Positions 17,067 through 52,724 of a stretch of 64,000 bases of DNA are shown piece by piece. The stretch's first letter is position 1. Each line of letters starts with the position of its first letter. A program made the translations under genes and the position numbers. The notes beneath the pieces were generated by a model. That model saw nothing but the letters and a program-made list of their open reading frames with translations, ran no database searches and was not told the origin of the DNA. This stretch comes from an uncultured bacterium (GTDB lineage Bacteria; Chloroflexota; UBA5177; JANWHV01), in assembly GCA_963729625.1 (NCBI GenBank), contig CAVSOU010000011.1:96001-160000 (forward strand), in the 5' to 3' direction.

Positions 17067-17819
17067 TTGCAGGTGTGTGACGACGTGCTAGGGCAGCCGA
17101 CTGAGACGATTACGCCCCAGGGTACTCGCATACTGATCATCGACGATGAGCCAAGCATCGTGCGCCTCCTTCAGGCTTACCTGGAGCACGAGGGCTTCGA
17201 GGTAGCAACTGCGGCGGACGGCGCGGATGCCTTGCTGGCATCTCGCAGCTTCAAGCCGCAGCTCGTTCTCCTGGACCTGCTGCTGCCCGAGATTGACGGC
17301 CTCGAAGTGTGCCGGCGGCTTCGCCAGGAATCCGACGTCTACATCATCATGCTTACCGCCCGATCGGAGGAGACCGACATTATCGTCGGTCTGACGCTCG
17401 GCGCGGACGATTATGTGACGAAGCCATTCAGCCCGCGAGAGATTGTGGCGCGCGTCAAAGCGGTGTTGCGCCGCGCGCGACGCCCGGCAGTGAGCCAGGA
17501 ATCCGAGGTTCTCAGCTTTCCTGACATTACGATCGACACGGGACGCCATAGGGTGGTCGCGTACGGCGATCCAGTCGATCTCACCGCCCTTGACTTCGAC
17601 ATTCTGCGCACGCTCGCGATGCAGCCGGGAATGGTATACACGCGGGCACAACTGCTCGAGCGGGTCTGGGGATATGACCACCTTGGAGACGAGCGCGTGG
17701 TCGACGTCCATATCGGCCTCTTGCGCAAGAAGATCGAGCGTGATGCACAGGAGCCGCGGTTCGTCAAGACCGTGCGCGGCGTGGGCTACAAGTTCGACGA
17801 CGGTGAGGCCGACCCGTGA
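17067..17819 (+). CDS. OmpR/PhoB-family response regulator
   Basis: ILIIDDE, LLDLLLP, MLTAR, GADDYVTKPFS, VDVHIGLLRKKIE, KTVRGVGYKF; start may be GTG 17085. Confidence 0.95.
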   Translation: MQVCDDVLGQPTETITPQGTRILIIDDEPSIVRLLQAYLEHEGFEVATAADGADALLASRSFKPQLVLLDLLLPEIDGLEVCRRLRQESDVYIIMLTARSEETDIIVGLTLGADDYVTKPFSPREIVARVKAVLRRARRPAVSQESEVLSFPDITIDTGRHRVVAYGDPVDLTALDFDILRTLAMQPGMVYTRAQLLERVWGYDHLGDERVVDVHIGLLRKKIERDAQEPRFVKTVRGVGYKFDDGEADP

Positions 17820-18913
17820 GCGCCTTCCGCCGCCTCTGGCATCTGCTGTGGAGGCAAATTACCTGGCGGCTTTTCGTTTCTTACCTGGTGGTTGGACTTG
17901 CGGCGATAGCCCTGCTTGGCTTGTTCATCCTCATCCTCGCGGAAAACTACTCGCACACGCATCCCGGCAGCTCTGGATTCCGGCTTGAGGTGTTGCAGGG
18001 CGTGGGGATCGCGGCTCTCGCTGCGATCGCGGCTTCTGCCGGTGCGAGCCTCTTCGTCTCGCGCCGAATTGTCGGGCCTCTGCGACTGCTGATGGATGCC
18101 AGCCAGCGCATCGCAGGCGGGCAGTACCACGAGCGAGTTCCGGTCGACGACGACTTCGAGATCACCCGGCTGGCGGCCAGCTTCAACCAGATGGCGCGGG
18201 CGCTTGAGTGCACCGAGGCGCTGCGGCAGGCGCTGATCGCCGACGTGGCACATGAGCTCCGCACGCCATTGACCACTATCAAGGGGTACATGGAAGCGCT
18301 GCTGGACGGCGTGATGCCACCCGGGAGCGAGACATTCGCGCTTGTGCACGACGAGGCGGACCGGCTTTACCACCTGGTGGAGGACCTCCAGGAGCTGTCG
18401 CGAATCGAGGCCGGGCAGGCGCCCATCGATCCGCATCCGGTCGACCTGGTCCCACTCATGCAAGGAATTGCCAGGCGCGTGCAGCCGCAGTTTGAGGCTA
18501 AGGGTGTACGGCTCGCCGTCCCAAGCGCCTGTGGCGCAGGACGGGTGCTGGGCGATGACGATCGTCTTTGTCAGATATTCCTCAACTTGCTCAGCAACGC
18601 CCTGCGCTACACTCCTCCCGGCGGCAGCGTGGAGGTGCGGGGCTACCGTGACCAGGACCAGGTCTGCGTGGTCGTGCAGGACTCAGGCATCGGTATCGCG
18701 CCCGAGCATCTCCAGCACATCTTCGACCGATTCTACAGGGCCGACAAGTCGCGATCCCGATCTCAGGGGGGCACAGGCATTGGGCTCACGATAGCCAAGC
18801 ACCTGGTGGATTTGCATGGGGGCGGAATAACGGTCAGCAGTGTGCCGGGCTCCGGCAGCACGTTCACCGTGTCGCTTCCTTCCGCGCCCGTGGCCGCAGA
18901 TGCCAAAGGTTAG
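17816..18913 (+). CDS. HAMP sensor histidine kinase (BaeS-like)
   Basis: 2 TM, HAMP, DVAHELRTPL H-box, NLLSNALRY, DSGIGI, GTGIGL; GTGA overlap with the regulator. Confidence 0.95.
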   Translation: MSAFRRLWHLLWRQITWRLFVSYLVVGLAAIALLGLFILILAENYSHTHPGSSGFRLEVLQGVGIAALAAIAASAGASLFVSRRIVGPLRLLMDASQRIAGGQYHERVPVDDDFEITRLAASFNQMARALECTEALRQALIADVAHELRTPLTTIKGYMEALLDGVMPPGSETFALVHDEADRLYHLVEDLQELSRIEAGQAPIDPHPVDLVPLMQGIARRVQPQFEAKGVRLAVPSACGAGRVLGDDDRLCQIFLNLLSNALRYTPPGGSVEVRGYRDQDQVCVVVQDSGIGIAPEHLQHIFDRFYRADKSRSRSQGGTGIGLTIAKHLVDLHGGGITVSSVPGSGSTFTVSLPSAPVAADAKG

Positions 18914-37826: not shown

Positions 37827-38292
37827 GACGGCCGCTACCCCAGCCCGGACCCGGAAAAGGTGATAACGTATAAGCACTGGAGCAAGGCCATGATGTATAT
37901 GGAAATCGCGCGCCCGAGCACGCCGTCTCCTGGCGGAGCCATCGGTCGCAAGGGTCAGCACGTGAAGGAACGACCGCGCTATGGCTCGGCGACCTGCTGC
38001 ATGGCGCGCGATCGCGCACGCCGCAAAGCGGACTCATCAAAGACATCGGCCCCGGTATCAAGTGCGACGTCACATCCACGCAATGACAGACAGCTTCCAG
38101 TGCCCCACGGTGCGTGGCCTCTTGACGAGTTTCCATGCACGAAGCCGCATGACCTTTCAGCTGCGGCACGGTTCCTTCGCGCTCCCAGTGTAAGGCGCAG
38201 CTACACGTTGCACACAAATTGGCGCGCGGGCGACTTGCCGGTCGTCTGCCGGACCGTGCCCCGCACTCTGCGGCCGATCGTTGGACAGCGCC

Positions 38293-38343
38293 GCGCATGG
38301 CAAGTGGCGCGCTCCGAGCCAACGTGCGCCAGGGGGACGTGGC
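38293..38343 (+). repeat. 51-bp exact direct repeat, copy 2 (isolated GGDEF-gene fragment)
   Basis: Identical to 28346-28396. Confidence 0.95.
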
Positions 38344-38391
38344 CATAACCTGAAGTCGGTCGAGATCTTGTCACTGAAGCTGGGACACTGC

Positions 38392-39393
38392 CTACAACCT
38401 GCCGGCGGCCTTCAGCACGTACAACGCGTCGACGGACACGAAAGGGTTTTGCTGCGTCCTGCCGCCCGGTCCCCAGTCTGCGAAGCTGCCACGGCTCGTT
38501 ATCATTGGCGAATGCGCGCAGGTCCTGATCTCCAGCGGGAAGCCCCCATCCGGCAACTGCTTTGCGGCAAGCAGGTCGAGGGCGGCACCACATCGCGGAT
38601 CGCCGAGCATGCCGCATTCCGCCATGACCGTGAGCGCGAAGAGGACGTCGTAGAACTGGATCGGGTACTGAATGGCGGTAATCTCCTTACCCCAGTCTGG
38701 GCGAATGAGGGCGCCGTCATGCACGCGATACAGGAGCCGTCTGCGCAAGAGATACTCTGCGGCCCGTTCCGCACAGGCCAAAGCCGGCGCATGTCCATAT
38801 GCACGGCCATAGTGCCGGAGTGCGCGCAGTGGGATGAGCGTCTCCTGCACCGAGGAGGTGCGCGCCTGCGGCCGCTTGTCACAGTTCCAGCCGCCATCGG
38901 GCCATTGCCAGACTACTAACCGCCGGGCGAGCTGGTGGATAGGCTCGTCGGCGAGTCCCAGCTTCATCGCGTACCAGAGCGCATTGCCCTCCTGGGACGC
39001 GCACCGACGCACTCGGTCCTCCTGGCCAGGAAGAACGAGGGTGCTGGGGAAACGCAGGTGCGTGGGCGCAAACAGCCAAGCCCATATCTGGTCCTGCAGG
39101 GGCACCAACCCGTCGTTGTCACTGTCCGGATAGGCGATGAGCGCCAGGCTGTACAGGGTCCAGTGCGGACCCTGCCACTTCTTGTAGGGATGCGTACGGA
39201 TGGTGCCGTCCTCCTGCCGGTGGCCGAGCAACCGGCGCGCCATCTCGCAGGTCCGGATTGACCCGCGCAACCGCACCATCGCTGGAGAGGCAGGCGGCTC
39301 GTCGAGGAGCAGATATCGCGCGCGGAAGGCCACAACTGGATTGGCGGATGCGCCCAGTTGCGATATCAGGCGTTCTATCGTCGCGCTGCGCAT
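38392..39393 (-). CDS. Hypothetical alpha/alpha-barrel protein (prenyltransferase/squalene-cyclase repeat-like)
   Basis: QEDG, WQWPDGGWNCD, KQLPDGGFP QW-like repeats; YKKWQGPHW. Confidence 0.75.
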   Translation of the reverse strand: MRSATIERLISQLGASANPVVAFRARYLLLDEPPASPAMVRLRGSIRTCEMARRLLGHRQEDGTIRTHPYKKWQGPHWTLYSLALIAYPDSDNDGLVPLQDQIWAWLFAPTHLRFPSTLVLPGQEDRVRRCASQEGNALWYAMKLGLADEPIHQLARRLVVWQWPDGGWNCDKRPQARTSSVQETLIPLRALRHYGRAYGHAPALACAERAAEYLLRRRLLYRVHDGALIRPDWGKEITAIQYPIQFYDVLFALTVMAECGMLGDPRCGAALDLLAAKQLPDGGFPLEIRTCAHSPMITSRGSFADWGPGGRTQQNPFVSVDALYVLKAAGRL

Positions 39394-39518
39394 ACCGGTC
39401 CAGCTCTCACCCGGGGGTCACAGGGCTCTCGCCAGTCCTCCGATAGTGTCTTCACCGACTGTCTTCTTCGAGCGGACGCGTCAAGAAGACGGGCGCCGTG
39501 GATACGCATGGTGTCCCA

Positions 39519-40217
39519 TCAGGCGGCACCTTTCCGCACAAGATATACGCCCGTCGTCCCGCCTGCAGCGACCCTGGCGTCGGCGACGCGAAGGTGCGCG
39601 GCGGCAAAGAGCGGCGGTAGCCCGCGCTGGGCGATGAAGTGCCGGTAGTGCGCGAAGTGCTGGCGGCCGCCGATGATCAGCTCCAGGGCCAGGATGACGC
39701 CTTCGTAAATCCACCCGGTGGGGAATGCGTACGGGCCGGCGCGGAAGTCGGCGACGACGATCGCGCCGTCCTCGCGCACCACGCGCGCGCACTCGTCGAG
39801 CACGGCCCCGCGCAGCCTGGCCGGCAGCTCATGGAGGACCAGCACGACGTTGACCAGATCGAAGGTGCCGCTGGCGAAGCTGGTCTGCGCCGCGCTCTCC
39901 CGGCGGAGATCGGCATCTTGGCCTAGCTTCCTCCTGGCGAGTGCGAGCATGGCGGGCGACGTGTCCACGCCGGCGACCGGGCAGCCGGCCCGCTGGTAGA
40001 CGGCCAGTTGGGTGCCGGTGCCGCAGCCCATGTCTAGGACACGCAGCCCAGGTCGGGGCGGACACAGGGCATAGCCGATGGCTCTATTCCTTCCGGCGGC
40101 GGGTTCGACGAGCCAATCGTACCACCGGCCCACCTTCCTGTACGGGTCACGGTCCAGTGCGGCAGTCGGCTGAGATCCGGCAGGCACGGCCTCGGCGCGT
40201 CGGCGTGAGTGACTCAC
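39519..40217 (-). CDS. Class I SAM-dependent methyltransferase
   Basis: VLDMGCGTG, GVDTSPAML, FDLV..LVLHE, RVVREDG; GTG start at 40217 with GGGAG RBS inferred. Confidence 0.85.
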   Translation of the reverse strand: MSHSRRRAEAVPAGSQPTAALDRDPYRKVGRWYDWLVEPAAGRNRAIGYALCPPRPGLRVLDMGCGTGTQLAVYQRAGCPVAGVDTSPAMLALARRKLGQDADLRRESAAQTSFASGTFDLVNVVLVLHELPARLRGAVLDECARVVREDGAIVVADFRAGPYAFPTGWIYEGVILALELIIGGRQHFAHYRHFIAQRGLPPLFAAAHLRVADARVAAGGTTGVYLVRKGAA

Positions 40218-40902
40218 GGAATCTCTCCCGAATCGGGCGGCGTTACTGCGCACGCTCTCGGGTTGCTGGACGCTGGCTGGTTCAAGAGCGCCGCGTTCGC
40301 GCCTGACTCTAGGAGTACTGTAAGGCACCGGCCTCAACCGTGCAACAGAGTCGCCCGTGTCTACGGTGACTCGGCGACCGGTGCGAGCTGCTCAGCGCCT
40401 CTTAGCCGCCTGTCACAAAGCGGGGCTCCAATAATTGACCGTGCAGCTGACCCACGTGGGCAACCTGACAGGCCTGCGCCACGCTGCCCGAAAACGCCTG
40501 CCTGTCTCGAACAAATACCGCCGTTGGGACTGCATGGATATGCGGGAAATAGGTGCGCACCGTGGCGTCCGCGTTGCGCTACGCCAGGAACAAGCGTGCG
40601 TCTCCGCATGTCCGGGGCCCGGCTCAGAAGCCCCGCGATGCAACCTGTTTCTGCCCGAAACACACTACATCCATAAGGGAGTAAGCGCTCGGCTCTGGGC
40701 AGCGTCATCGGCGCCGATTTGGCAGCCGCCATCCACAAGCAGGTTGGTATGCTGGGCCGTGAGGACCCCGCATCAAGCACAGGATCCACCGACGTGCTAG
40801 GGTAGAGCTGGGCTGGCCCGGCTACGGGTATGGACCATCAACCCGGGGTGGGGTAGAGCCATCGTTCCCGCGGCAGGCAGAGTGTAAGAAGGGAAGACGG
40901 CG

Positions 40903-41350
40903 ATGTCTGATCATGACCCGTGACGAGCGGGAAGCGTTCTGGCAGCGCTGCATGACGGCGCGACCAGCACGAGAAGCCAGACCACGGGGGTCGTAGTGCG
41001 GTGGGAACAGAGCGATAGGCGGCAGCAGCGCCTACGCGTTACGACGGTAGGCCAGCGCTGCGGCTGGTCAGCCTGCGCGCATTGCGTTTCCCTACGCGTA
41101 CTGTCGGTGCAAGGCGTGGTCCTGACCATAGGTCGTGGATGCCACATTCACCGTTGCCCTCTTACCCTACGCCATGAAGGTGCTTATCAAACGCCGGACT
41201 GTAGGCAGCACGCGGGATCAAGGCGCGCTCGTCCGGAAGACGGGGACAGACACGCGAAGGCTGTTGAGGAAACAGATCGCTATCTGTCGCGGCAAACGAG
41301 TACGTGGATGCGGCACATGGCGTCACCGTGGCGCGCTGCGCCGTGAAGTC
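40903..41350 (+). pseudogene. Degraded pyridoxamine 5'-phosphate oxidase-family gene
   Basis: RBS plus MS..MTRDEREAF(L)AALH and later PYAY.SVQG fragments in shifting frames. Confidence 0.4.
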
Positions 41351-41498
41351 GGGATGATCGAGCGGGGAGGGGATGATGGCAGAGAACGGCCGGTGACGGT
41401 CAGGTCTTGGCGGGGTTCGTGGCAGCCATGGGCGCTTTCTATGTCCTCACAACCACCGCAAATGTGGCACGGGAATACGCACTGACCAACCATCGGAA

Positions 41499-41724
41499 GT
41501 GAAGCTAGCGACTGATCTGCGTTTATCCATGCTCGCTCACCTTCAGCGGCTCGGCATGGATACCACGGGGCGGGTACGGAGCATCGATCTGCAGGCACGG
41601 TTCTCCACGGACGTGACGACAATCAAGCTTGCCCGCACGAGGTCTGCTTCCCACGGTCATTCGCTATGGCCTCCAGGTGTTCGCGGATCGTCGTGCTCCT
41701 GTTCTTCCTGGCGTGGCAACTGAA
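41499..41724 (+). pseudogene. ABC exporter transmembrane-domain fragment
   Basis: DLRLSMLAHLQRLGMD...DLQARFSTDVTTI, then frameshifted LLFFLAWQL. Confidence 0.6.
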
Positions 41725-42306
41725 AGAGCAGAACGCTACTGGGCGCCTTGGGCAGACGACCCATTGCGGCGAGGAGATCGGCGCGGCAGCGACACTGGAC
41801 ATGGCATTCTGCGAGGTGGGGATGCGCTGATCGCGGCGCTCTCGTCGTGGTGCCACACTATGCGAAGCTGACGGCGGTCGCCGTGTGGATCTTTACTTTG
41901 GCATTGTCAACCCCTTGCAGCCTGCTCGCCTTGTGCCCGCTCCATGCGCGAGCCGACGAGCGCCCGCCAGCTACGGCAGCGTCTTCCGCGCAGGCCATGG
42001 CGCGGCCGCGCAAATATCGTGAAGCCGTTGATGCCGGCAGAACATCTGGTCAGCGGGAGCCGAGCACCTCGTCCAGGCAAGTCGAGAAGCAGGTATAGAT
42101 AGCCAGATTCAGGAGGCGATGTTCGCGTGCTTCAGGAAGGCTGTGAACGTCGGACAGGCTTGCCCGATTTCGCGTTGTAGGATGCTTCAGCGGGAGCGAA
42201 TCGAGGACCATCGCATGATTACGCGAGTCATCGCGATGGTGGCTTTTCACTGAGAAACGGAGTTTGCGCTTGCTCGCGCGAAGCGGCGCAGCAAAAGAGG
42301 TGCAGC

Positions 42307-43483
42307 ATGAAGGTGGTGATCGTGGCTGGCACCAGGCGCGTGGCTCATATTCCATGCGCGCTTTGATCGTGGCGAGCCCTGACGGGACGAGGTGCAGTTT
42401 ATCGGCCGCACCAGGCGTCCTCGGACGACTGGCGCTTATCTGGGTTCACAAGGCCTTCCGGTGTGGCCGTTGATGTGCGGCACCACGACCGTCAGGTGGA
42501 CCTTGCAGCGCGTGGACGCTGTGCTGGCCAATACGGCGGGACCCGACTTTGAGATGCAGCTTCCCGCCGTCAAGGCAGCGATCGCGGCCGGCGTCGATTA
42601 CGCCGACATCGCCGCGGACGGCCGTGCGACCGATGAGGTGCTTGCCCTCGACGGCGAGATGCGTGTCAAGCGTAGAACGGCGCTGATTGGAGTGGGAGCA
42701 GCCCACGGGTGACGGACCGCACCGATACAGGCTCTGCGGCCACTCGACGTGGTCAGGGAGATCCAATTCGGTACCTGTGGGGAAGCTTGGCTGGTGGCGT
42801 GATGCGGGCCCACGTCGGCTATGTCGCTACTCCGGCAGCATAACTTCTGGCAGATGCGTGATGGCGTTTGTGCGGGGTCCGGTGCGGATCTATCGCGACG
42901 GGCAGCCCCAGACGGTCGACCCATTCACCCATGGAGTGACGGTTACCTGGCCGACCGGTGAGTCCTGTCGCCATCCGGTGGACAGTCGCCGAGACCCGAC
43001 GCTGCCGTTGCATCTTCCCGGAGCGCTGTCGTTCACCAGCCTGGTGTCGTTGTGGCCCCGCGGCTCAATGAGTTGTGGAGGGAGCAGAGCAGTCACATGC
43101 TGGTTGGGATCATGGGCCCGGCAGAAGCGGCACAGGCACTGTACGAGGCTGTCGCAGCGCGGCCGGGGCACTGGCTGGCCAAGCAGGCCAGGAGCCGGAG
43201 CGCTCGTGGGGCGGATTGCTCGCGGCAAGTCGGCGGACGGCCCGCCCGCTATGCCTGATGGCCACGGCGATGGTTCTATTCGACGACAGAAAGTCTCCTC
43301 GCGGTGGCTACTCTGGCGATGGTGCGTGGTGAAGTGCGAGCCAGAGGGGTGGTGCCGCCGGAGGTCGCCTTCGAACCGTCAGATGCCCTGTTTGCTACGT
43401 TGGCGGGCTTCGCAGGGACAGACGCGTCGCAAGAACCCCTGTTTGACGAGTCGATTGTGTATGAGGACAGCGTGAGCGGGTGA
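42307..43483 (+). pseudogene. Saccharopine dehydrogenase-family pseudogene
   Basis: RBS plus MKVVIVAG; NTAGP...AAIAAGVDYADI..., ALIGVGAAHG; C-terminal RGVVPPEVAF; multiple frameshifts and stops. Confidence 0.7.
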
Positions 43484-43545
43484 GCGGGCGGAAAAGCGGC
43501 GTGCTGACCTGCCAGGGCGTGAGTCTCATTGGCGAGGAGGTCAGA

Positions 43546-43965
43546 ATGACTACGCGAAGTGCGCGGTTCGATGTGCATGCGCCACAGGTGGTGCCCTGGG
43601 CACCCATGCCGACAACGGCGGACGGAGACGCGAGACGGAACGCGGCGGCGACACACGCGGGGCCAGCCAAGCGACGCGCGGAAGCGGACACCGCGGCCCG
43701 CGCGAGACCACGCGGGGCGCTGGGCACGGACACAACGTGGCTCTGCGGCACCGGCAGCTGGGAAGCAGGCGGCAACAGTGGACTGCATCTCGGTGGGAAG
43801 TCGGTAGCGCTCGTGGGGGCAGAGGAATGGACTCGGGCAAGCGGTCCTGATGGAAAGAGAAGACTATTAACATTGCGAACTGGGAGCCGCCTTCTATCTT
43901 GCTGTGGCGGCGTGTGCGGGCTACACTTCACGCGTCGACTACCAGCGAATGAGTCTTGGCGGTAG
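43546..43965 (+). CDS. Possible small hypothetical protein
   Basis: Strong GAGGAGG RBS before ATG 43546; low-complexity product with no motif. Confidence 0.25.
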   Translation: MTTRSARFDVHAPQVVPWAPMPTTADGDARRNAAATHAGPAKRRAEADTAARARPRGALGTDTTWLCGTGSWEAGGNSGLHLGGKSVALVGAEEWTRASGPDGKRRLLTLRTGSRLLSCCGGVCGLHFTRRLPANESWR

Positions 43966-44017
43966 GCGACCGAAGAGTAGCCCCGCGTGCCGCCGGCGAA
44001 TCGCTGGAGGGTAGCAG

Positions 44018-44506
44018 TTGAACGGGTGCATTGTGGCAGTTGGTCGCATCCGAGGCGTGACCCTCCTGTGCTTCGCGGCAGCATCGGTCGCCATCGGTCT
44101 GGCAGGCTGTGGCAGCAGCTCGACCAGCGGACCACGGACAACGGTCGCTCCCAGCGCGACTGCCGGTACCGTGAACCTCGCAGGCTGTGTTCCGGCGTCG
44201 ACGGATGGGAATGGCGGCCCCTACCCAGCCGCCACCTCAAGCGATTGCACGCGGCAGAAGACCGTGGAGATCGACGTCGTGAACGATCCAAAGACGATTG
44301 GCGGATTCTCGCCCAGTAACGTCCTGGTGTCTCGCGGGACCACGGTGACGTTCGTCTGGAAGTCTTCGGGCCACAATCTCAGCCCGTTCCATACCGATAT
44401 TGAAGACACAGGCTACGTGTTCCGCAAGACTTTCGATCGCGCCGGAGAGTACGACTACAATTGCCAGGTCCACCCGGGCCAGAACGGCGTGATATTCGTC
44501 CGGTAG
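44018..44506 (+). CDS. Cupredoxin (plastocyanin/amicyanin-like) lipoprotein
   Basis: Lipobox LAGC; FSPSNVLVSRGTTVTF, GHN, GEYDYNCQVHPGQNGVIFV. Confidence 0.85.
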   Translation: MNGCIVAVGRIRGVTLLCFAAASVAIGLAGCGSSSTSGPRTTVAPSATAGTVNLAGCVPASTDGNGGPYPAATSSDCTRQKTVEIDVVNDPKTIGGFSPSNVLVSRGTTVTFVWKSSGHNLSPFHTDIEDTGYVFRKTFDRAGEYDYNCQVHPGQNGVIFVR

Positions 44507-44707
44507 CGGCAAGCGATGCAGTATTGTATGCTAACGACAGGGGCAGCTCGATCGGTCCCCGGATTCGACGACGGTGCGTGAACTATGCTCGTTCATTAGA
44601 AGGCCGCGAGGAGAGACAGTGTCCGCGGTGTTGCCATCGGTGTGCGCGGACAAGCCACGGCGTGTTTTGACACCTGTGCCTGCCAGTGCGGGAGGTTATC
44701 CAATACT

Positions 44708-46138
44708 ATGACTCAGACATGCGCCCGCTGCGGCCTCTTCCATCCGCAGAATGTGCCGTGCGTCTCGCAGGCATTGGCACTGGTCGAACAACCCGATGAG
44801 CTGGTCGTCGATTCTCTCCTGGCCGGTCGCTACCGTATGCTGCGGACGCTGCATCACGGCGGCATGAGCGTCGTGTATCTGGCCGAAGATATTCTGCTTG
44901 GGAACCGCCACGTGGCTATCAAGGAGCTGCGGGTGCCGGCCTCTTCCGGGCCTGAGGAGCGGCGTGAAGCCGAGGCATGGTTTGCCCGCGAGGCATACAT
45001 TCTCAGCGCCTTGAATCATCCTCTCGTCCCGGAGTTCTACAGCTCGTTCCCGGAAGGCGGCACAAGCTATATCGTCCAGGAGTACGCCGACGGCGAGAAC
45101 TTGAATGACGTGGTGCGCGCGCGCGGACCGCTGCCCGAAGCCACCGTGCTGGAGTGGGCAATATCGCTCTGCGGACTCCTCAGCCACCTGCACGGGCTGG
45201 ACGAGCCGGTGCTGTTCCGTGATCTGAAGCCCGCGAACATCGTGCTTCGGAACGCTGCGTCGACGAATCCAGACCGGGCGTGCCCGCTCAAGGTCGTGGA
45301 CTTCGGCATCGCCAGGCACTATGAGCCGAAGACGGTTGGCACGGTCATAGGCACTCCGGGTTACGCACCCCCAGAGCAATACCAGGGCCTCGCCACACCG
45401 CAGAGCGACATCTACGCGCTGGGTGCGACGCTGCACAGGTTGCTCACCGGCTACGATCCCGAGCACGGCACCACATTCTGCTACCCGAGCATTCGCTCGC
45501 TGAATCCGTTGGTCTCAAGTGAGCTTGCCGATATCGTCGAGAGAGCTATCCGCCTGGACCCGGCCCAGCGCTATGCCACGGCCGGTGAGTTTGGCGATGC
45601 CCTGCTTGACCTTGCCTGGGACCGTGGCCAGATCGGCGTTTCCGACGTGGCATCGCCGGGCGGTCACTGGTACCACGGACCGTCGACCAGGTCGCGACAG
45701 GCGTTCCGTTGGACGGCCCTCGTAGTATGCCTGATGATGGTTGCGCCCGGCGTGTTCTCAGTGCTTGCCGGCATGAGCGTGAGCTCCCCGAGCGCGACGA
45801 TCGGCTTGGGAGACTACGCGTGTCCTCCAGCCTACTCTGATGGGGCCGGGGGTCCTTATCCTGCCCAGTCCCGATCGTCGTGCCTCGGTCAATCCCGGGT
45901 CTGGATTCAGGTCGTGCCGGACGCCAACCAAGGCGTCGGCTTCGCGCCGAGTAACGTCAGCGTCAGCGTGGGAACCACGGTAGAGTTTTGGAGCAGTAGT
46001 ATCGGCTGCAAGGTCGCATGGTCGCCGAATACGGTCGGCGTGCGGACTCTGTCCGGAATCCAGTTCACGCGCACGGGTGACTATATGTACTCCTGCCAGG
46101 AAATGCCAAACGTGTTTGGGGTTGTGCATGTCGAGTAG
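44708..46138 (+). CDS. Membrane Hanks-type Ser/Thr kinase with C-terminal cupredoxin-like ectodomain
   Basis: GGMSVVY, VAIKE, FRDLKPAN, DFGIA, GTPGYAPPEQ, SDIYALG; one TM; ectodomain similar to the upstream gene; GGGAGG RBS. Confidence 0.9.
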   Translation: MTQTCARCGLFHPQNVPCVSQALALVEQPDELVVDSLLAGRYRMLRTLHHGGMSVVYLAEDILLGNRHVAIKELRVPASSGPEERREAEAWFAREAYILSALNHPLVPEFYSSFPEGGTSYIVQEYADGENLNDVVRARGPLPEATVLEWAISLCGLLSHLHGLDEPVLFRDLKPANIVLRNAASTNPDRACPLKVVDFGIARHYEPKTVGTVIGTPGYAPPEQYQGLATPQSDIYALGATLHRLLTGYDPEHGTTFCYPSIRSLNPLVSSELADIVERAIRLDPAQRYATAGEFGDALLDLAWDRGQIGVSDVASPGGHWYHGPSTRSRQAFRWTALVVCLMMVAPGVFSVLAGMSVSSPSATIGLGDYACPPAYSDGAGGPYPAQSRSSCLGQSRVWIQVVPDANQGVGFAPSNVSVSVGTTVEFWSSSIGCKVAWSPNTVGVRTLSGIQFTRTGDYMYSCQEMPNVFGVVHVE

Positions 46139-46198
46139 GAGTCGGCACGGCAGGTTCTCCAGCAGTGCAGCTGATTTTCTGGGAGTGACGGCAACTGG

Positions 46199-47476
46199 GT
46201 GACTGAACCAAGGCGAGACGGCGACACCTCGGCGCCCGCACCGGCCGTGGACACGCTCCTCTCCAAGAGCGTGATAGTCGTGCCCACGTACTGGAGTCGG
46301 TCGCACGGATTTCGTCGCCCTGGAGACAGTACGGAGGATCATCCGACTCCCGCCAACGAGTCGGGCACTATGGCCCGCCTGCTTGCCAGTCTGCAGCGGC
46401 TGGCGGAGAAACCCAGTCTGGTTCTGATACTCATCTCTAGCTCCGCGCCGGACGTGGCAACCAGTGCGTCGTGGCAGGCAGACACTATTCGAGACAGATA
46501 CCCCGATCTCCCGATCGCGCTTTGGCTGCCGACGCATGTGCAGATTCTGCATGGCCGGCTCCGTTCGCTGGGTCACGACGCGTGGATCTCCTGGTTTGAT
46601 TCTCGCGGCTACCCGCTCATCCGGAATATGCAGCTTCTGGTGCCTTTCGTGCTTGGCATGGAGCTGGTCGTGGCGCTCGATGACGACGAGATCGTCGAGG
46701 ACCCCCATTTCTTGCGGCGTTCCGCCGAGGCAATCGCGTGGGGTGACGCCCGCGGCGAACGCGTGTTCGGTGCCGGCGGGCACTACCTCGATGATGCCGG
46801 CCGGCGTTGGCACGAGGTCGGGGAGTCGGAGAAGATGCAAACCAACCCGTTCGAGAAGAAGCCCCACCTCATGAACGGGATCCTCGAACGTATTGCCGCG
46901 ATGCCCGGAGAGATCGTGCCGAGCGCGTTCGCGCTCGGCGGAAACATGAGCTTCAGCCGTGAGCTCATGTGCCGGGTGGGGTTCGACCCTTCGATCGCGC
47001 GGGGAGAAGATATCGACTACGTGCTCAACGCAGCGCTCGCTGGCATTCCCTATCACTTTGACAAGGAGCGACCAATCCGGCACCTTCCGCCCCAAGGACG
47101 GTCCTACAAGGACTTCGATTATGCGAAGCTTCAGCAGGACGTGAGACGCTTCCTTTACGAGCGCGAGAAGCTACGCGCCGCGGCGGAGGCCGGTGGCTTT
47201 GCAGCAGTGCGGCCCGAGGATCTTGATCCATACCCGGGCGCCTTCTTGCATGACGACCTGGAGGTCGACGCGGTCGATTCGCTGACGCTGCACAGACCGA
47301 AGCTCTTCGACGTGAGCATCCAACAGCCCGACGTGTTCGTTCAGAACGCGCTGCACTTCGCGCGCGCCGCCGCCGAACGCTACATCACGTTTGCCCGAGC
47401 ATGGCCTCAGGCGATGGATCGGCTTGCCGACGATCGCGTGCTGCGGCACGTCATCCGGGGTATTCTTCCCGGGTAG
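46199..47476 (+). CDS. GT-A-fold glycosyltransferase-like protein
   Basis: VIVVPTYW, RN, VALDDDE DxD motif, GGNM, RGEDIDY. Confidence 0.65.
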   Translation: MTEPRRDGDTSAPAPAVDTLLSKSVIVVPTYWSRSHGFRRPGDSTEDHPTPANESGTMARLLASLQRLAEKPSLVLILISSSAPDVATSASWQADTIRDRYPDLPIALWLPTHVQILHGRLRSLGHDAWISWFDSRGYPLIRNMQLLVPFVLGMELVVALDDDEIVEDPHFLRRSAEAIAWGDARGERVFGAGGHYLDDAGRRWHEVGESEKMQTNPFEKKPHLMNGILERIAAMPGEIVPSAFALGGNMSFSRELMCRVGFDPSIARGEDIDYVLNAALAGIPYHFDKERPIRHLPPQGRSYKDFDYAKLQQDVRRFLYEREKLRAAAEAGGFAAVRPEDLDPYPGAFLHDDLEVDAVDSLTLHRPKLFDVSIQQPDVFVQNALHFARAAAERYITFARAWPQAMDRLADDRVLRHVIRGILPG

Positions 47477-47509
47477 TCTGTCCTGAAGGGCCTCAGCCCG
47501 GCGATCTTG

Positions 47510-49078
47510 CTACAAGCCTTGAGGCGCGGACGCGCGTCTCCACCTCAGGTCTGGCTTCCGTGCCGCGAGAGCTTCGTCGATGCGCGATACCGGCGCATGG
47601 TGCGGCGCGCCGCGGACCTCGTCGCTCCCCGCTTCGACTTCCCGGGCAACCGCCAGCAGCGCCTCGGCAAAGCCCTCGAGAGTGGCTCGATCTTCCGTCT
47701 CAGTCGGCTCGATCATCAGGCACTCGTCGACGATGTGCGGGAAATAGATGGTCGGCGGATGGTAGCCGAAGTCGATCAGGCGCTTCACCATGTCTATCGT
47801 CTTCACGCCTTGTTGCTTCTGCCGCGTGCCCGACACCACGAATTCATGCATGCAGCTGCCCGGGAAGGGCGCCTCGAACGCGCTGATCAGCAAGGAACGC
47901 AGGTAGTTGGCATTGAGCACGGCGTCGCGGCTTGCCAGCGTCAGGCCGTCGGGACCCATGGAGCGAACGTACACGTATGCTCGAATGAGCAGGCCAACGT
48001 TGCCGAAGAAGCTGCGCACACGGCCGATGCTGAGCGGCCGGTCGCTCGTGAGCGTGTAGAGCTCCGCGCCATCGGCACCGGCTCCCCGCTCGATCTGCGG
48101 CACGGGCAGGAAGGGCGCCAGCGCGGCCTTCACCCCGACGGGACCCGTGCCTGGTCCGCCGCCGCCATGTGGCGTGGTCATCGTCTTGTGCAGGTTGAAG
48201 TGCACTACGTCGAAGCCCATGTCGCCGGGACGCGCGGTGCCCATGATCGCATTGAGGTTCGCTCCGTCATAGTAGAGACGTCCACCGGCATCGTGTACGA
48301 TGCCGGCTATCTCCACGATGTCCTTCTCGAAAAGACCGCACGTATTCGGATTGGTGAGCATCAACGCCGCGGTTCGCGGTCCGGTTAGCCGGCGCAGATC
48401 GTCGACGTCGACCGTGCCCCGAGCATTGGATTTCACTTGCACGACGCTGTATCCTGCGGCAGCCGCACTCGCCGGGTTGGTTCCGTGGGCCGTGTCCGGC
48501 ACCAGGACCTCGCTCCGGCGATCGCCGCGACTCTCATGGAAGGCGCGGATGATCATCAGACCCGTGAGCTCGCCATGCGCCCCCGCTGCCGGCTGCAGCG
48601 TGAAGGCGTCCATGCCGCCTATCTCACAGAGATACTCCTGCAAGCGGAAGAGAAGCGCGAGCACGCCCTGGACTGTGGAGTCGGGCTGGTGTGGATGGAG
48701 ACCGGACCAGCGTGGATCGGCGACTAGGTCCTCGTGCAGTTTTGGATTGTACTTCATGGTGCACGAGCCAAGTGGGTAGAATCCGCCGTCGATGCTGTAA
48801 TTCAGCTGCGAGAGCCTGGTGAAGTGCCTCACGACCTGCAGTTCACTCATTTCGGGCAGCTCAGCAGTTGTAGATCGCTGGAGTTGCGATGGGATGAGTG
48901 CCGCGATCGGTTGCTCAGGCACGTCACAGGCCGGAAGGGAGAAAGCCGATCGACCGGGAGACGATAGCTCAAACACGGTCGGCTCGAGGACCTTGCGGTC
49001 GGCGGTTGTCGCGGCGGAGCTTGGCCGTGCTGGCGCCGCGTCCTGCATATCTTTCAAGGGCTGGCCTATCGCCATCAT
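47510..49078 (-). CDS. gcvPB: Glycine dehydrogenase (decarboxylating) subunit 2
   Basis: [42 protein letters not shown]; ATGA overlap with gcvPA. Confidence 0.96.
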
Positions 49079-50418
49079 GCGCGCACCTCTCCCAGTGCCT
49101 GAGCCAGGGCATCGATATCTTCTCTGCCGTTCAGCTCCGTGCAACACACGAGCAGTCCTTGCGGAATGCCCGCCTGTCCATCCAGCGGGATTCCGGCGAG
49201 GATGCCACGCGTGACCAGGGCGTCGCGAATCTCCGCTCCCGGCAGAGGCGTGCGGACCGCGAACTCATGGAAGAAGGGCCGGTGAAAAGCCAGTTCATAG
49301 CCGGCGACCCTGCCGATCTGGTCGGCCGCGTAGTGCGCCTTCTGCACGCACAGATTGGCCACGTGGCGCAGACCCTGCTTGCCCATGTAGCTGAGGTACA
49401 TGGTGGCCGTCGTGGCGCAGAGCGCATGGTTGGAGCAAATATTGCTGGTAGCCTTCTCCCGTCGAATGTCTTGTTCGCGCGTGCGCAGCGTCATGACGTA
49501 GGCACGGCGCCCCCGCGAGTCGACGCTGGCGCCCACGATGCGTCCCGGCAAGCGACGCACGAGCGATTCCTTGCAGGCGATGAACCCTGCGTACGGTCCG
49601 CCATACGCGAGCGGCATGCCAAACGGCTGGGCATCACCCACCGCGATGTCCGCGCCCACTTCACCGGGCGTGCTCAACAGTGCCAGCGACAGCGGGTTTA
49701 CACACGCGACATACAGTGCGCCGGCCCCGTGCGCGGCTTCGGCCAGAACCGCCTGGTCTTCGACAATCCCGAAATAGTTCGGCGACTGAGCGATCACGAC
49801 CGCGCTGCGATCGTCGAGGGCCGCGGCCACCCGCGCGGCGTCCACGCTGCCATTCAGGGCCGGCACTTCAGTCAATGTAAGGCCCTGGCTCCAGCAGTAC
49901 GTCCGGAGCACCTGCAGATAGTCGGGATTGAGTGTGCCGGGCACAATCACCCCACGACGCCCCGTGGCGTTCACGGCCATCATCGCCGCTTCCGCACATG
50001 CCGTGGCGGCGTCATAGAGCGAGGCGTTGGAGACGTCGAGCCCGGTTAGCTCGCAGATCATGCTCTGCCACTCGTAGGTCACTTGCAGCGTGCCCTGGCT
50101 AACCTCCGGCTGGTACGGCGTGTACGCTGTGACAAACTCGCCACGGGACGCCAATGCCGAGACAACGGCCGGAATGTGGTGATGGTAAGCGCCGCCCCCA
50201 AGGAAGGAGCGTGGCCCGGCACGCAGGCTATTGCGGTCGGCCAGTCTCTCCATCTCCTGGATGATCTCGGGTTCCGAGACCGCAACTGGCAGGTCGAGCG
50301 GACCAGAGCGCAGTCCTGATGGGATGTCGGCGAGCAGGTCCTCCATGCTGGAGACGCCAAGCGAATCGAGCATCGCGCCGCGATCGGCATCGGTGTGAGG
50401 GAGATATGGTGTGGGCAT
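49075..50418 (-). CDS. gcvPA: Glycine dehydrogenase (decarboxylating) subunit 1
   Basis: [36 protein letters not shown]. Confidence 0.96.
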
Positions 50419-50461
50419 TCTGCGGTGATCCTTTGAACTCGTCAATCTCGATGTGTCCCCG

Positions 50462-50621
50462 CGCTGCCCTGATGCCGCAGCTTCAGGCCCACGGGCGCCA
50501 TATCTCGTAGCCGCCGCAGCCGCGGGGTACGCATACAGTGGGTCGCCTTCCATTCTGCTGCAGCTGGAGGTCAATCAAGTGGAAGCCCCCCGTGCGCTCC
50601 CCTGATGCCGCAGCTTCAGGC
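50462..50621. repeat. Two copies of a 22-bp hairpin repeat in the gcvH-gcvPA spacer
   Basis: CCCTGATGCCGCAGCTTCAGGC at 50467-50488 and 50600-50621. Confidence 0.85.
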
Positions 50622-50662
50622 TTGGAACACATCGCGACGACTCCCCCCTTCACGTATCAGCC

Positions 50663-51034
50663 TCAGTGCGCGGCGGTCTCCTGGTACGTGGCCCGATCCA
50701 TCAACAGTTCCCGATCGGCGACATTCCCTGAGATCTTTAGTAGCCAGCCGTCGCCGAACGGGCTGTTGTTCACGAGCTCGGGCTTGTCCACCAGCGCGGT
50801 GTTCACCTCCACCACGGTGAAATCGATGGGTGCGTACAGATCTGAAGCAGTCTTCACCGACTCGATGGTCCCGAAAGTCTCGCCGGCCTTGAACGCCTTG
50901 CCGACCGGCGGAAGCTCGACGTACACGACGTCGCCCAGCTGTTCCTGCGCGAAGTCGCTGATGCCAATGGTCATGGGGTCGCCATCGCTTGTCCACTCGT
51001 GGCTGCTCGCATAGCGGAGAAGATCCGGATTCAC
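50663..51034 (-). CDS. gcvH: Glycine cleavage system H protein
   Basis: [23 protein letters not shown], lipoyl site IESVKTASD; AGGAGG RBS plus GTG. Confidence 0.96.
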
Positions 51035-51252
51035 GTCTGTCCCTCCTATGTGCTTCATCGGTGTACGGTCAACTGGCGAAACGATCGTCGACTCGGGCGC
51101 GCCCGGGAATCGCGATCTGTGCTGATGAGTCAAATGTCCTGCCTGTGGCCTTTCCAGTGGCCGGGCCTCGGCCCGCGCGTCTGATACTCCCGCCTTCAGG
51201 CCGCCTCTGCTGTTGTGCCCTGGGAAACGTTACGAACGTGACAAGTGCCCCT

Positions 51253-52476
51253 CTAGGTTTGCTTTTGGCGTCGATAGAACGGTGTCTTGACTACCGTGGC
51301 TCGGTGCGGCTGGTCGCGCACCCGCACGGCAACCGTGGTGCCGATTGGCGACTCCGCGACCGGCAGATAGGCAAGGGCGATTCCCTTGCCGAGCGTGGGC
51401 GAGAAGCCGCCGCTCGTCACCTCGCCAAGCTGATTGCCTGCGCTATCGACGACAGCGTAGTGGGCGCGCGGCACAGCCCGATCATCCATGGCGAGCCCGG
51501 CAAGCACGCGTGTGAGACCTTCTCGCTGCTGCGCTGCCAGCGCATCGCGGCCTCTGAACTTCGGCTTCTCAAGCTTGACCCAGCGGCCAAGTCCGGCTTC
51601 CAGCGGCGTCGTATCGTCGGTGATGTCATTGCCGTAAAGGGGTAGCCTCGCCTCGAGACGAAGCGTGTCGCGCGCGCCGAGGCCAACCGGTCGCAGCCCA
51701 TAATCGACGCCGGCCCCGCGCAGAGCGTTCCACAGATTCACCGCCTGCGCGGCGTCGACCAGCAGCTCAAAACCGTCCTCGCCCGTGTAACCGGTCCGCG
51801 CAATGGTGACCGCGAGTCCAGCCACCACAGACGTTGCCAGCCCGAAGAAAGGAAGCGCTTCGAGCGGCTCATCCGTCAGCGCCTGGAGGATGATTTCCGC
51901 ATTCGGACCCTGGATGGCGATCAACGCGGTCTCGAAACTGCGATCTTCGATCGTCGTGACGCCTTGCAGCCGTTCCTCTCCTTGAACCTGATTCAGCCAG
52001 GCCCAATCCTTCTCGGTGTTGGCGGCGTTCACGATCAGGAGGTAATGGGCGTCCTCCGCTCCCGGCAGGTGGTAGGCGATAATGTCGTCCACGATCGTGC
52101 CGTCGTCCCGACACATCGGCGAATAGACCGCGCGCGACGCCGGCACCATGCTGATGTCGTTGGTTATCAGCGTGTTGACGAGACATAAGGCGCCCGGGCC
52201 GCCCACGTAGAACTCGCCCATGTGCGAGAGGTCAAAAAGACCGGCGGTGGTTCGCGTGGCGTTGTGTTCCTCGACGATGCTGCCGTAATCGATCGGCATG
52301 TGCCAGCCGCCGAAGGGCGCCATGCGCGCCCCTAGCGCCACATGCTGGGCATGCAGAGGCGTTTCACGCAACGTTTCCGTTGCGGGAGCCACGTCCCGCC
52401 ACGGGCTCGGCCTCGCCGCGCGATCCGTGCCTGGCACGTCGTGCCCGGGCCGCGCCGGAGTAGCGTCCTCGCTCAT
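51253..52476 (-). CDS. gcvT: Glycine cleavage system aminomethyltransferase T
   Basis: FDLSHMG, RTGYTGEDGFE, GLGARDTLRLEA, VTSG.FSPTL. Confidence 0.96.
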   Translation of the reverse strand: MSEDATPARPGHDVPGTDRAARPSPWRDVAPATETLRETPLHAQHVALGARMAPFGGWHMPIDYGSIVEEHNATRTTAGLFDLSHMGEFYVGGPGALCLVNTLITNDISMVPASRAVYSPMCRDDGTIVDDIIAYHLPGAEDAHYLLIVNAANTEKDWAWLNQVQGEERLQGVTTIEDRSFETALIAIQGPNAEIILQALTDEPLEALPFFGLATSVVAGLAVTIARTGYTGEDGFELLVDAAQAVNLWNALRGAGVDYGLRPVGLGARDTLRLEARLPLYGNDITDDTTPLEAGLGRWVKLEKPKFRGRDALAAQQREGLTRVLAGLAMDDRAVPRAHYAVVDSAGNQLGEVTSGGFSPTLGKGIALAYLPVAESPIGTTVAVRVRDQPHRATVVKTPFYRRQKQT

Positions 52477-52513
52477 CTCGTCACCCTTCTCAAGGCTCCA
52501 GTTCCGGCACCAC

Positions 52514-52566
52514 AAAACAGAAAGAGCGGAGACTATGGGGTATCATCGCCCGCATAGCTCCGCTCT
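52514..52566 (-). terminator. Riboswitch expression-platform intrinsic terminator
   Basis: Minus strand AGAGCGGAG-CTATG...CATAG-T-CTCCGCTCT followed by TTCTGTTTT. Confidence 0.8.
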
Positions 52567-52724
52567 GTTCTCGTCCAGCCCGCCTCGCAAGAGACGGCCG
52601 GGTCCCGTTCAGAGCACCGTCCAGCCGGAATCCTGTTGCCTGAGAGATTCACCCGCCTTGCGAGCTTTCCCCTTCGGCGCCGCGCCTAGCTTGACGCGAT
52701 CTCTTTTCCTGCCTTCTCCCGGTA
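52563..52724 (-). promoter_or_regulatory. Glycine riboswitch (one aptamer plus ghost aptamer)
   Basis: GAGA...CGCCGAAGGGGAAAG...AATCTCTCAGGCAACAGGA, then GGACGGTGCTCTG linker; directly upstream of gcvT. Confidence 0.88.

Follow-up and report, generated by a model that had tools for sequence, protein, structure and literature searches.

A cupredoxin lipoprotein and a Ser/Thr receptor kinase with a paralogous ectodomain in an uncultured Chloroflexota lineage: a candidate redox or copper sensor

What might a receptor kinase perceive through a copy of the copper protein encoded beside it? This question is raised by two consecutive genes in a 64,000-nucleotide stretch of contig CAVSOU010000011.1 (assembly GCA_963729625.1, positions 96,001 to 160,000; hereafter, the window) from an uncultured bacterium of the phylum Chloroflexota. 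The upstream gene encodes a predicted type-1 (blue) copper cupredoxin with a lipoprotein anchor, and the downstream gene encodes a Hanks-type Ser/Thr kinase whose C-terminal ectodomain is paralogous to that lipoprotein (Table 1). The original prediction, made from the letters of the window without database searches, had read the pair as a candidate copper- or redox-dependent transmembrane signalling system. We regard the anatomy of the gene pair, a cupredoxin lipoprotein followed by a kinase with a paralogous ectodomain, as very well secured, and judging from the sequences it is plausible that the kinase is a redox or copper sensor.

The paralogy was evident from direct comparison of the two proteins. 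BLASTP aligned the mature lipoprotein with the kinase C-terminus at 56/144 identities (E 2e-21), and alignment of the domains alone gave 46 identical residues out of 105, close to the approximately 45/106 that had been counted by hand in the original prediction. The C-x19-C loop with the DGxGGPYPA motif, claimed for both proteins, was located at C57..C77 and C372..C392, respectively. The proposed swap of ligand motifs, GHN and C-x2-H-x2-Q in the lipoprotein versus GCK and C-x2-M-x2-V in the kinase, was likewise found, as GH119N/C149-H152-Q155 and GC434K/C463-M466-V469; Met466 and Val469 of the kinase thereby occupy the positions of the former second His ligand (His2) and the former axial ligand. 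At the DNA level, the two copies shared 48% nucleotide identity (36% at third positions), the same codon was used in 20 of the 46 identical-residue pairs, and the synonymous divergence (dS) of 1.7 was saturated. Because dS is saturated and few codons are shared, the duplication is old and not a recent copy. Tandem duplication in one uncultured Chloroflexota lineage gave two membrane-tethered, extracytoplasmic cupredoxins.

Structure prediction placed both copies in the same fold. The two domains were modelled with AlphaFold2 (AF2) on alignments of 32 and 27 rows. The lipoprotein model (predicted local distance difference test, pLDDT, 91.8; predicted template modelling score, pTM, 0.85) was a Greek-key beta-barrel of the cupredoxin type, and Foldseek searches against the PDB matched it with a probability of 1.00 to 9cck, 6hbe, pseudoazurin, 5fc9, amicyanin, and plastocyanin. 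The same protein matched Pfam family PF00127 at 29.2 bits (cut-off 21.2; E 1.3e-6), and a profile built from its 22 homologs matched solved cupredoxins with E values of 2e-7 to 5e-3. The ectodomain model (pLDDT 86.5, pTM 0.80) was matched by Foldseek with a probability of 1.00 to pseudoazurin, NirK, rusticyanin, and plastocyanin, and VIA-align gave a Z score of 9.0 to the C-terminal cupredoxin of 9cck (root-mean-square deviation 2.6 A over 85 residues) and of 8.4 to plastocyanin 1bxu; all 50 VIA-align rows listed for the ectodomain were cupredoxin-type copper proteins. AF2, Foldseek, and VIA-align thus agree that the ectodomain folds as a cupredoxin, as had been anticipated. The Pfam scan of the kinase reported no cupredoxin family for this domain.

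Table 1. Features of the cupredoxin-kinase locus and associated genes, in window coordinates.
Feature	Position	Strand	Basis
Lipoprotein gene, 162 aa, predicted type-1 (blue) copper cupredoxin	44018..44506	+	Open reading frame (ORF), start codon, Pfam, AF2, 22 homologs
Lipoprotein N-terminal extension, Cys57-x19-Cys77 loop with DGNGGPYPA	44186..44248	+	22-homolog conservation, model
Predicted lipoprotein type-1 ligands: His119 (44372-44374), Cys149 (44462-44464), His152 (44471-44473), axial Gln155 (44480-44482)	44372..44482	+	
Hanks-type Ser/Thr receptor kinase, 476 aa	44708..46138	+	Pfam, motifs, homolog starts
Cytoplasmic knuckle C5-x2-C8-x3-H12-x5-C18 of the kinase (MTQTCARCGLFHPQNVPC)	44720..44761	+	Conserved in full-length homologs
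Single transmembrane helix W335-G355 of the kinase	45710..45772	+	Arg-rich cytoplasmic stretch before it
Cupredoxin-like ectodomain of the kinase, C372-E476 (105 residues)	45821..46135	+	BLASTP, AF2, Foldseek, VIA-align
Ectodomain Cys372-x19-Cys392 loop	45821-45883	+	Shared with lipoprotein C57..C77
Cys434 (former first His, His1, position) and Cys463 (former copper Cys)	46007-46009; 46094-46096	+	Alignments
Gene 3, 425 aa, weak glycosyltransferase (GT-A/GT2) similarity	46199..47476	+	Pfam, NCBIfam, synteny
OmpR-type response regulator (17067-17819) and HAMP/HisKA histidine kinase (17816-18913)	17067..18913	+	Pfam, orthology

The lipoprotein gene opens with a TTG codon, six bases past a GGAGG, and its product comprises a signal peptide, a lipobox, a Ser/Thr/Pro-rich linker, the Cx19C loop, and the cupredoxin barrel. 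The lipobox LAGC lies in the context ...VAIGLAGC31GSSS (Cys31 at 44108-44110), after a basic n-region and a hydrophobic h-region; it follows the bacterial-lipoprotein pattern [LVI][ASTG][GA]C, and LAGC or near variants were present in the full-length homologs. In the loop, C57, D63, G66-P70, and C77 were invariant or at least 90% conserved among the 22 homologs, and the AF2 model showed this segment as ordered, without regular secondary structure. The Cx19C loop, common to both copies, is probably a structural staple.

Two of the four copper ligands of the lipoprotein, Cys149 and Gln155, were invariant, and His119 and His152 were each present in 20 of the 22 homologs. In profile alignments, its C-x2-H fell on the C-x2-H of 9cck, 5fc9, and 1bxu, the His of GHN on the 'PHN' His of 5fc9 and 1bxu (plastocyanin), and Gln155 on a Met in 9cck; we take the aligned residues of these three structures to be their copper ligands. 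Because the ligand set is conserved and aligned to solved cupredoxin motifs, the lipoprotein is predicted to be a type-1 copper protein with a short, amicyanin-length C-x2-H-x2-Q loop and an axial Gln. An axial Gln resembles stellacyanin, and the C-x2-H spacing matches that of amicyanin. Near the copper site, the most conserved residues were W114, K115, H125, and E129. The lipoprotein extends the cupredoxin family by a member whose N-terminal loop is unusual. In two of the 22 lipoprotein homologs, P0014 and P0020, neither His ligand remains (GGANL, CQLNAGQ); the Cys and Gln are kept, and the Cys of the kinase type has not been gained. The blue site was thus lost here a second time, independently.

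The longest open reading frame of the kinase begins at an in-frame GTG (44642..46138), and the ATG at 44708 sits downstream of a GGGAGG. This ATG is almost certainly the true start, because all full-length homologs begin with MTQTC.RCGLFHP. The protein is laid out as an N-terminal Cys/His knuckle, a kinase domain, one transmembrane helix, and the cupredoxin-like ectodomain. The kinase domain matched PF00069 at 118.4 bits (cut-off 31.7) and is of the Hanks type; its catalytic motifs were intact (VAIK69, F-RDLKP-AN171, DFG198, APPE220) at positions conserved among the homologs, and the enzyme appears catalytically competent. The best NCBIfam match was NF033483 (Stk1/PknB), which reached only 171.5 bits against a cut-off of 450, because PASTA repeats are absent; the match covered residues 36-300, namely the kinase domain, and a full-length PASTA kinase was not recognised. 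The knuckle, to which no family could be assigned, may be a small cytoplasmic zinc site.

Since the ectodomain lies behind the single transmembrane helix of the kinase, the topology would put the kinase inside and the C-terminus outside the cell. Across eight kinases, the helix was near-invariant (A332-G348, L353, G355), which suggests contacts within the membrane. The stretch comprising the helix and the residues preceding it (45701-45772, AFRWTALVVCLMMVAPG) was more conserved than the ectodomain in these eight proteins. The same knuckle occurs in two related kinases with other C-termini: L071 (L071:702-2138; 55% identity) has a short low-complexity tail instead of a cupredoxin, and a paralog on the same contig (G000:C11 ~549900-551900, - strand; 60% identity) has an unrelated ectodomain of about 170 residues. 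Because related knuckle-bearing kinases carry other ectodomains or none, the cupredoxin is likely an acquired, exchangeable sensor module of these kinases.

The change that sets the ectodomain apart from its parent concerns the copper pocket. The alignment comprised 14 ectodomains: those of the window, of its relatives G001 and G002, and of two metagenome loci, with nine more from database proteins, of which three were fragments. The first loop Cys was present in all 14 and the second in 13 (absent in P0155). Cys replaced the first His ligand in 14/14, and the copper Cys was kept in 14/14. The His2 position was occupied by M, F, Q, Y, V, L, Y, F, Y, Y, L, N, I, and F, and the axial position by V in 10, I in two, T in one, and D in one (hydrophobic in 12/14). 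No His or Met was conserved elsewhere in the domain, and none of these sequences has the four-ligand type-1 set. The four Cys and approximately 10 further positions were called invariant; the most divergent ectodomain, L031 (1414-1752)/P0178, had the DGxGGPYPA motif replaced and kept all four Cys. The original prediction of a Cys/Cys/Met site was therefore borne out for the two Cys and not for the Met, which occurs in the window only (1/14) at a position that varies among M, F, Q, Y, V, L, N, and I. The equivalence of His119 and Cys434 is given by the multiple alignments and by both AF2 models, in which each lies five positions past the preceding strand; pairwise aligners offset the two by one position. 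Overall, the ectodomain has lost the blue site and cannot form it, and the features characteristic of the family are the Cys pair in the former pocket and the Cx19C loop, which the lipoprotein also has.

The distribution of the module was narrow. The genome of the window (G000) consists of 21 contigs and is 87% complete with 5% contamination; of 41 genomes including this one, matches were found in 5/5 of the genus and in 0/36 others of the same class and phylum. One lipoprotein homolog is named "Chloroflexi bacterium" at NCBI, and the nearest other kinases came from Chloroflexota metagenome-assembled genomes. A profile search of 1.84 billion representative proteins gave 4139 cupredoxin-type matches, of which 150 were listed; within these 150, the Cx19C/GGPYP motif was restricted to small family members and the kinases P0025, P0028, and P0076, and among 178 collected proteins (including these best 150 of 4139) the loop motif was confined to the family. 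In P0155, the GGPYP core is retained and the second loop Cys is missing; both P0076 and P0155 are kinase fragments starting in the transmembrane helix. One protein, P0176, turned up when longer fusions were sought by a word-based search, and it too is a kinase. A contig search with the kinase alignment yielded no further cupredoxin-bearing member among the best 80 of 584 relatives, mostly generic kinases from Chloroflexota, Vulcanimicrobiota, and others, with records near the genome of the window possibly excluded; L071, which lacks the domain, came from this search. As far as these collections reach, the module is confined to a single genus-level lineage and to metagenome contigs related to it.

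The gene pair recurred in G001, G002, L023, and L031. The lipoprotein, the kinase, and the glycosyltransferase-like gene 3 occurred in this order in the window and, by tblastn, in G001. The lipoprotein and kinase were adjacent in G002, where no match to gene 3 was found before the contig ends 3188 bases past the kinase stop, in L031, whose contig ends just past the kinase, and in L023, where gene 3 does not follow. In G003, G004, L025, L028, L029, L032, and L033, gene 3 follows the lipoprotein directly and the kinase is absent. Neither the kinase nor gene 3 accompanied the lipoprotein on the short contigs L024, L026, and L027 or at a second copy in G002, and the contigs of L030 and L034 end at the lipoprotein. 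Within the genome of the window, contig G000:C6 (13,626 bases) copies G000:C11:134206-147534 (window ~38206-51534) at 90-99% identity with many indels; the reading frames of the kinase and gene 3 are broken in this copy, which is best explained by strain variation or by duplication in the assembly, and not by a true second locus.

In a tree of 31 domains (restricted to rows in which 95 or more residues follow the motif, with P0001 omitted as a near copy of the window), the kinase ectodomains formed one clade (support 95/88; present in 94% of bootstrap trees) with long branches, and the lipoproteins were on short branches. In a tree labelled by gene order, all kinase-less loci except L032 formed one tight clade (100/99), and the kinase loci branched separately at the base; the root of this tree was not fixed, and the L031 ectodomain sat on a very long branch, which makes its placement unreliable. 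Because the kinase-less loci mostly form one tight clade and the kinase loci are basal, we take the kinase to be an ancestral component of the sampled family that disappeared in one subclade, possibly on two occasions. A late insertion of the kinase, as the raw count of seven loci without and five with it might suggest, was rejected in view of the tight kinase-less clade.

Between the window and G001, the nonsynonymous divergence (dN) of the ectodomain reached 0.32, compared with 0.12 in the lipoprotein domain and 0.06 in the kinase domain. The ratio omega was approximately 0.1-0.3, a rough value, as dS exceeded 0.9 in the informative comparisons and was saturated between the window and G001. 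The ectodomain is under purifying selection that is less tight than that on its neighbours. Together with the saturated dS of the two copies and the single ectodomain clade, this fits the earlier view of an old duplication retained under selection.

We propose the following mechanism. The lipoprotein would carry single electrons while tethered to the membrane, much as auracyanin does in other Chloroflexota, and, because it survives loss of the kinase, it would work independently. In the kinase, the first His ligand has been exchanged for an invariant Cys that would face the retained ligand Cys in the former copper pocket. The Cys434/Cys463 pair would then be a switch, either between dithiol and disulfide or through a thiolate-bound metal, and its state would set the conformation or dimerisation of the ectodomain and thereby the activity of the kinase inside the cell, so that oxidant or copper conditions at the cell surface would be signalled by the kinase. 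As a principle of sensing, the Cys-pair switch is a tentative proposal, one that we find quite possible and stop short of calling probable; within it, we favour a thiol/disulfide switch over Cu(I) binding. That the site exchanges electrons or copper with the blue paralog, so that the redox or copper state of a respiratory-type electron carrier is read directly as phosphorylation, is a more specific idea that we think unlikely. There are precedents for single elements: in CupA and the N-terminal domain of CopA, a cupredoxin fold with a bis-thiolate Cu(I) site is paired with a paralogous domain on a membrane partner (PMC7558416), and auracyanin B is described as a membrane-tethered type-1 copper protein of Chloroflexota (PMC3150298).

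Several points weigh against this proposal. The closeness of Cys434 and Cys463 is deduced from the parent fold, in which both positions bind one copper, and the two Cys could form a purely structural disulfide that replaces the metal. The residues W114, K115, H125, and E129 around the copper site of the lipoprotein are not kept in the kinase copy. The kinase is absent from two of the five genus genomes and from five metagenome contigs in which the lipoprotein is present, so the pair is not obligatory. The Pfam scan of the neighbouring genes revealed no copper-homeostasis, respiratory, phosphatase, or FHA gene among them.

If the pocket were simply filled by a structural disulfide, the ectodomain could be a copper-free docking module that senses a protein or a small ligand at its surface, for example, the redox partners of the lipoprotein or some unrelated cue, with no direct relevance of copper or redox state. 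We hold this to be a serious possibility, albeit a doubtful one. It would account for the non-ligand residues at two of the four ligand positions and for the unrelated ectodomains on kinases of the same family; the dN of the ectodomain, 2.7 times that of the lipoprotein domain, is of the kind often seen in ligand-binding sensors, and the Cx19C pair in both copies suggests that exported domains carry disulfides here. However, an invariant His-to-Cys exchange exactly at a ligand position is a pointed change for mere filling, and a shared docking partner is disfavoured because the surface residues around the copper site of the lipoprotein are not kept in the kinase. The search for the machinery of disulfide formation also counts against it: models for DsbB, VKOR, and Thioredoxin_4 found nothing in this 87%-complete genome, and its one DSBA-family open reading frame (C10:390681-391250), which has neither a signal peptide nor a CxxC, looks cytoplasmic, leaving no exported DsbA-like protein found. 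These outcomes are weak evidence: they slightly favour thiols that are not constitutively oxidised, count against a constitutive disulfide, and are insufficient to decide between free thiols and disulfides. A relic, by comparison, seems very improbable. Under that view, the ectodomain would be decaying and the kinase regulated from inside the cell, as might fit a domain that is the fastest-evolving part of the kinase protein, has one member without the GGPYP motif, and is replaced in a related kinase by a short low-complexity tail. The four Cys and approximately 10 further positions invariant over 14 sequences, an omega of approximately 0.1-0.3 (with dS saturated), the confident fold prediction, and the ectodomains having stayed together in one clade while the family diversified all speak against decay.

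Metal binding by the same two Cys leads to a distinctly unlikely alternative, a CupA-type Cu(I) sensor in which Cys434 and Cys463 would form a two-coordinate bis-thiolate site and copper would perhaps come from, or be contested with, the lipoprotein; this corresponds to the copper reading of the original prediction with the Met removed. Two invariant thiols do lie where the parent fold binds copper, and CupA binds Cu(I) tightly at a bis-thiolate and passes it to the paralogous domain of its membrane partner (PMC7558416); 4f2e, cited with the CupA precedent, was in the Foldseek lists of both models (rank 25 for the ectodomain and 15 for the lipoprotein). Moreover, a two-component system stands beside the lipoprotein in three relatives, comparable to copper-inducible cinAQ with cinRS alongside (PMC3056050). 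Yet this two-component pair is generic and scored under the heavy-metal cut-offs, and the neighbours scanned include no gene for CopA, CsoR, CopZ, or a multicopper oxidase. Extracytoplasmic Cu(I) sites usually use Met and His, and no conserved Met or His stands alongside the two Cys; furthermore, the lipoprotein would be a poor donor, as a type-1 site releases copper reluctantly. Quite improbable, finally, is a co-receptor or decoy, with heterodimers of lipoprotein and ectodomain formed through the hydrophobic patch that is typical of cupredoxins and competing with kinase homodimers, so that kinase activity would depend on how much lipoprotein is present or on its redox state. The two genes are paralogous, adjacent, on the same strand, and 67-201 bp apart in five loci, their products share a membrane face and have linkers of similar length, and the His2 position is hydrophobic or aromatic in most ectodomains. 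Nevertheless, identity between the copies is only 39-44% and the surfaces that they conserve differ, and because the lipoprotein persists where the kinase has been lost, such a role would be secondary at most and is unlikely to be obligate. A complex prediction of lipoprotein residues 55-162 with kinase residues 366-476, each with its own alignment and without controls, twice gave an interface score (ipSAE) of 0.00 and speaks neither for nor against an interaction. Among these accounts, the invariant Cys pair acting as a switch, preferably between thiol and disulfide, remains the reading we prefer.

The genes surrounding the pair were examined for further indications of function. Gene 3 completes a series of three consecutive genes on the + strand (44018-47476). 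Its glycosyltransferase similarity is weak (Pfam Glyco_tranf_2_3, E 0.056; NCBIfam EpsD, E 5e-4, far under the cut-off), and it had no sequence match in the PDB. The gene is conserved: in the window it comes after the kinase, and in loci lacking the kinase it comes straight after the lipoprotein. No promoter or terminator was predicted on the + strand between 43600 and 47700, and the operon structure is thus proposed from spacing alone. Also nearby are the glycine cleavage operon and genes for an ABC transporter and glutamate synthase. The glycine cleavage genes, on the - strand, converge on the downstream side of gene 3: a glycine riboswitch aptamer (52618-52718, - strand; 57.4 bits) lies upstream of gcvT (51253-52515), which is followed by gcvPA and gcvPB. 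This riboswitch was the only Rfam match in the whole window, and no transfer RNAs were found. In kinase-less loci (L018, L019, L025, L028, L029, and L033), a Peptidase_S58 gene of approximately 490 aa comes after gene 3, and in L025 and L028 a 903-aa protein with Fer2, Pyr_redox_2, and Rubredoxin_C domains is encoded upstream of the lipoprotein.

The response regulator and histidine kinase located earlier in the window are orthologous to a pair in G004 (75 and 64% identity, respectively). In G002, G004, and L030, the two-component pair is directly upstream of the lipoprotein, and in L025 a histidine-kinase fragment lies 3.6 kb upstream of it; in the window, 25 kb of unrelated genes intervene. 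From the synteny in three loci, the two-component pair may be part of the module. The outer loop of the histidine kinase comprises approximately 20 unconserved residues. An assignment as a heavy-metal two-component system (TIGR01387/TIGR01386) was rejected, since the scores were 166.9 versus a cut-off of 279.2 and 182.9 versus 292.55 bits; the models for MtrA, RpaB, and PhoB and for WalK, PnpS, and BaeS outscored the heavy-metal ones, and none reached its own cut-off. Directly upstream of the lipoprotein gene, the 3.7 kb of 40337-44018 had no convincing open reading frame and contained short Arg-rich frames and one 106-aa frame without a Pfam hit, which may resemble a dehydrogenase fragment. 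Nucleotide similarity to G001 starts only at ~43898, and short pieces of this region recur on contigs C8, C10, and C11. The region was also considered as ribosomal RNA and rejected, as no Rfam family was present there.

Full-text literature searches yielded no description of a kinase with a cupredoxin ectodomain; other such kinases may be annotated and undescribed, because InterPro architectures were not queried. Among bacterial Hanks kinases, signals have been identified for very few sensor domains, and here is one with a clear ancestry and a likely two-Cys active site, for which the sensing hypothesis is directly testable on two small soluble domains. For bioinorganic chemistry, the two proteins offer a matched natural pair, a predicted blue site and a site rebuilt by a His-to-Cys change in the same fold. 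If electron or copper exchange between the two were to hold true, the kinase would constitute the first transmembrane sensor based on a cupredoxin, with a type-1 site that evolution has redesigned by a His-to-Cys exchange. In evolutionary terms, a receptor would have been made by copying a neighbouring surface protein onto a kinase, which was later lost in one subclade.

Among known systems, the closest model for the role of the lipoprotein is the auracyanin of Chloroflexus and Roseiflexus, whose ligand loop is azurin-like. The auracyanin ligands are given as His2/Cys/Met, and auracyanin B is proposed as a mobile carrier from alternative complex III (PMC3150298); being a membrane-tethered type-1 copper protein of Chloroflexota, it is the best model for the lipoprotein, which differs from that description by its axial Gln, short C-x2-H-x2-Q loop, unique Cx19C extension, and lipobox anchor. 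The best structural matches were the short-loop cupredoxins (amicyanin, pseudoazurin, plastocyanin, the C-terminal domain of 9cck, NirK 6hbe, and the purple 5fc9), with Z scores of 9.0-7.3 for the ectodomain. In contrast to these, the lipoprotein has an axial Gln and not Met as well as an extra N-terminal disulfide-type loop, and the kinase copy is without two of the four ligands.

The organisation of the pair resembles CupA and CopA (PMC7558416), in that a membrane-anchored cupredoxin is accompanied by a membrane protein with a paralogous cupredoxin; a Cys-thiolate copper site, here a candidate, would be a further likeness. The CupA and CopA domains, however, are cytoplasmic and feed a P1B ATPase, and CupA has an extra Met-rich site, whereas here the domains would be outside, the partner is a Ser/Thr kinase, the free copy is predicted to be type-1, and there is no conserved Met; no sequence relationship was detected beyond the fold. 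No CupA-type Met-rich site was found, nor a partner ATPase gene among the neighbours examined, and the location would be outside the cell and not cytoplasmic. In the cinRS-cinAQ locus of Pseudomonas putida (PMC3056050), a two-component system adjoins a cupredoxin gene, which parallels the arrangement in G002, G004, and L030, whereas the present pair falls under the heavy-metal cut-offs, has a short unconserved loop, and lies 25 kb from the lipoprotein in this genome. With PknB/Stk1 and PknD, the kinase shares the layout of a cytoplasmic Hanks kinase, one transmembrane helix, and an extracytoplasmic sensor; where those kinases have PASTA repeats or a beta-propeller, the sensor here, which has no PASTA repeats, is a cupredoxin fold.

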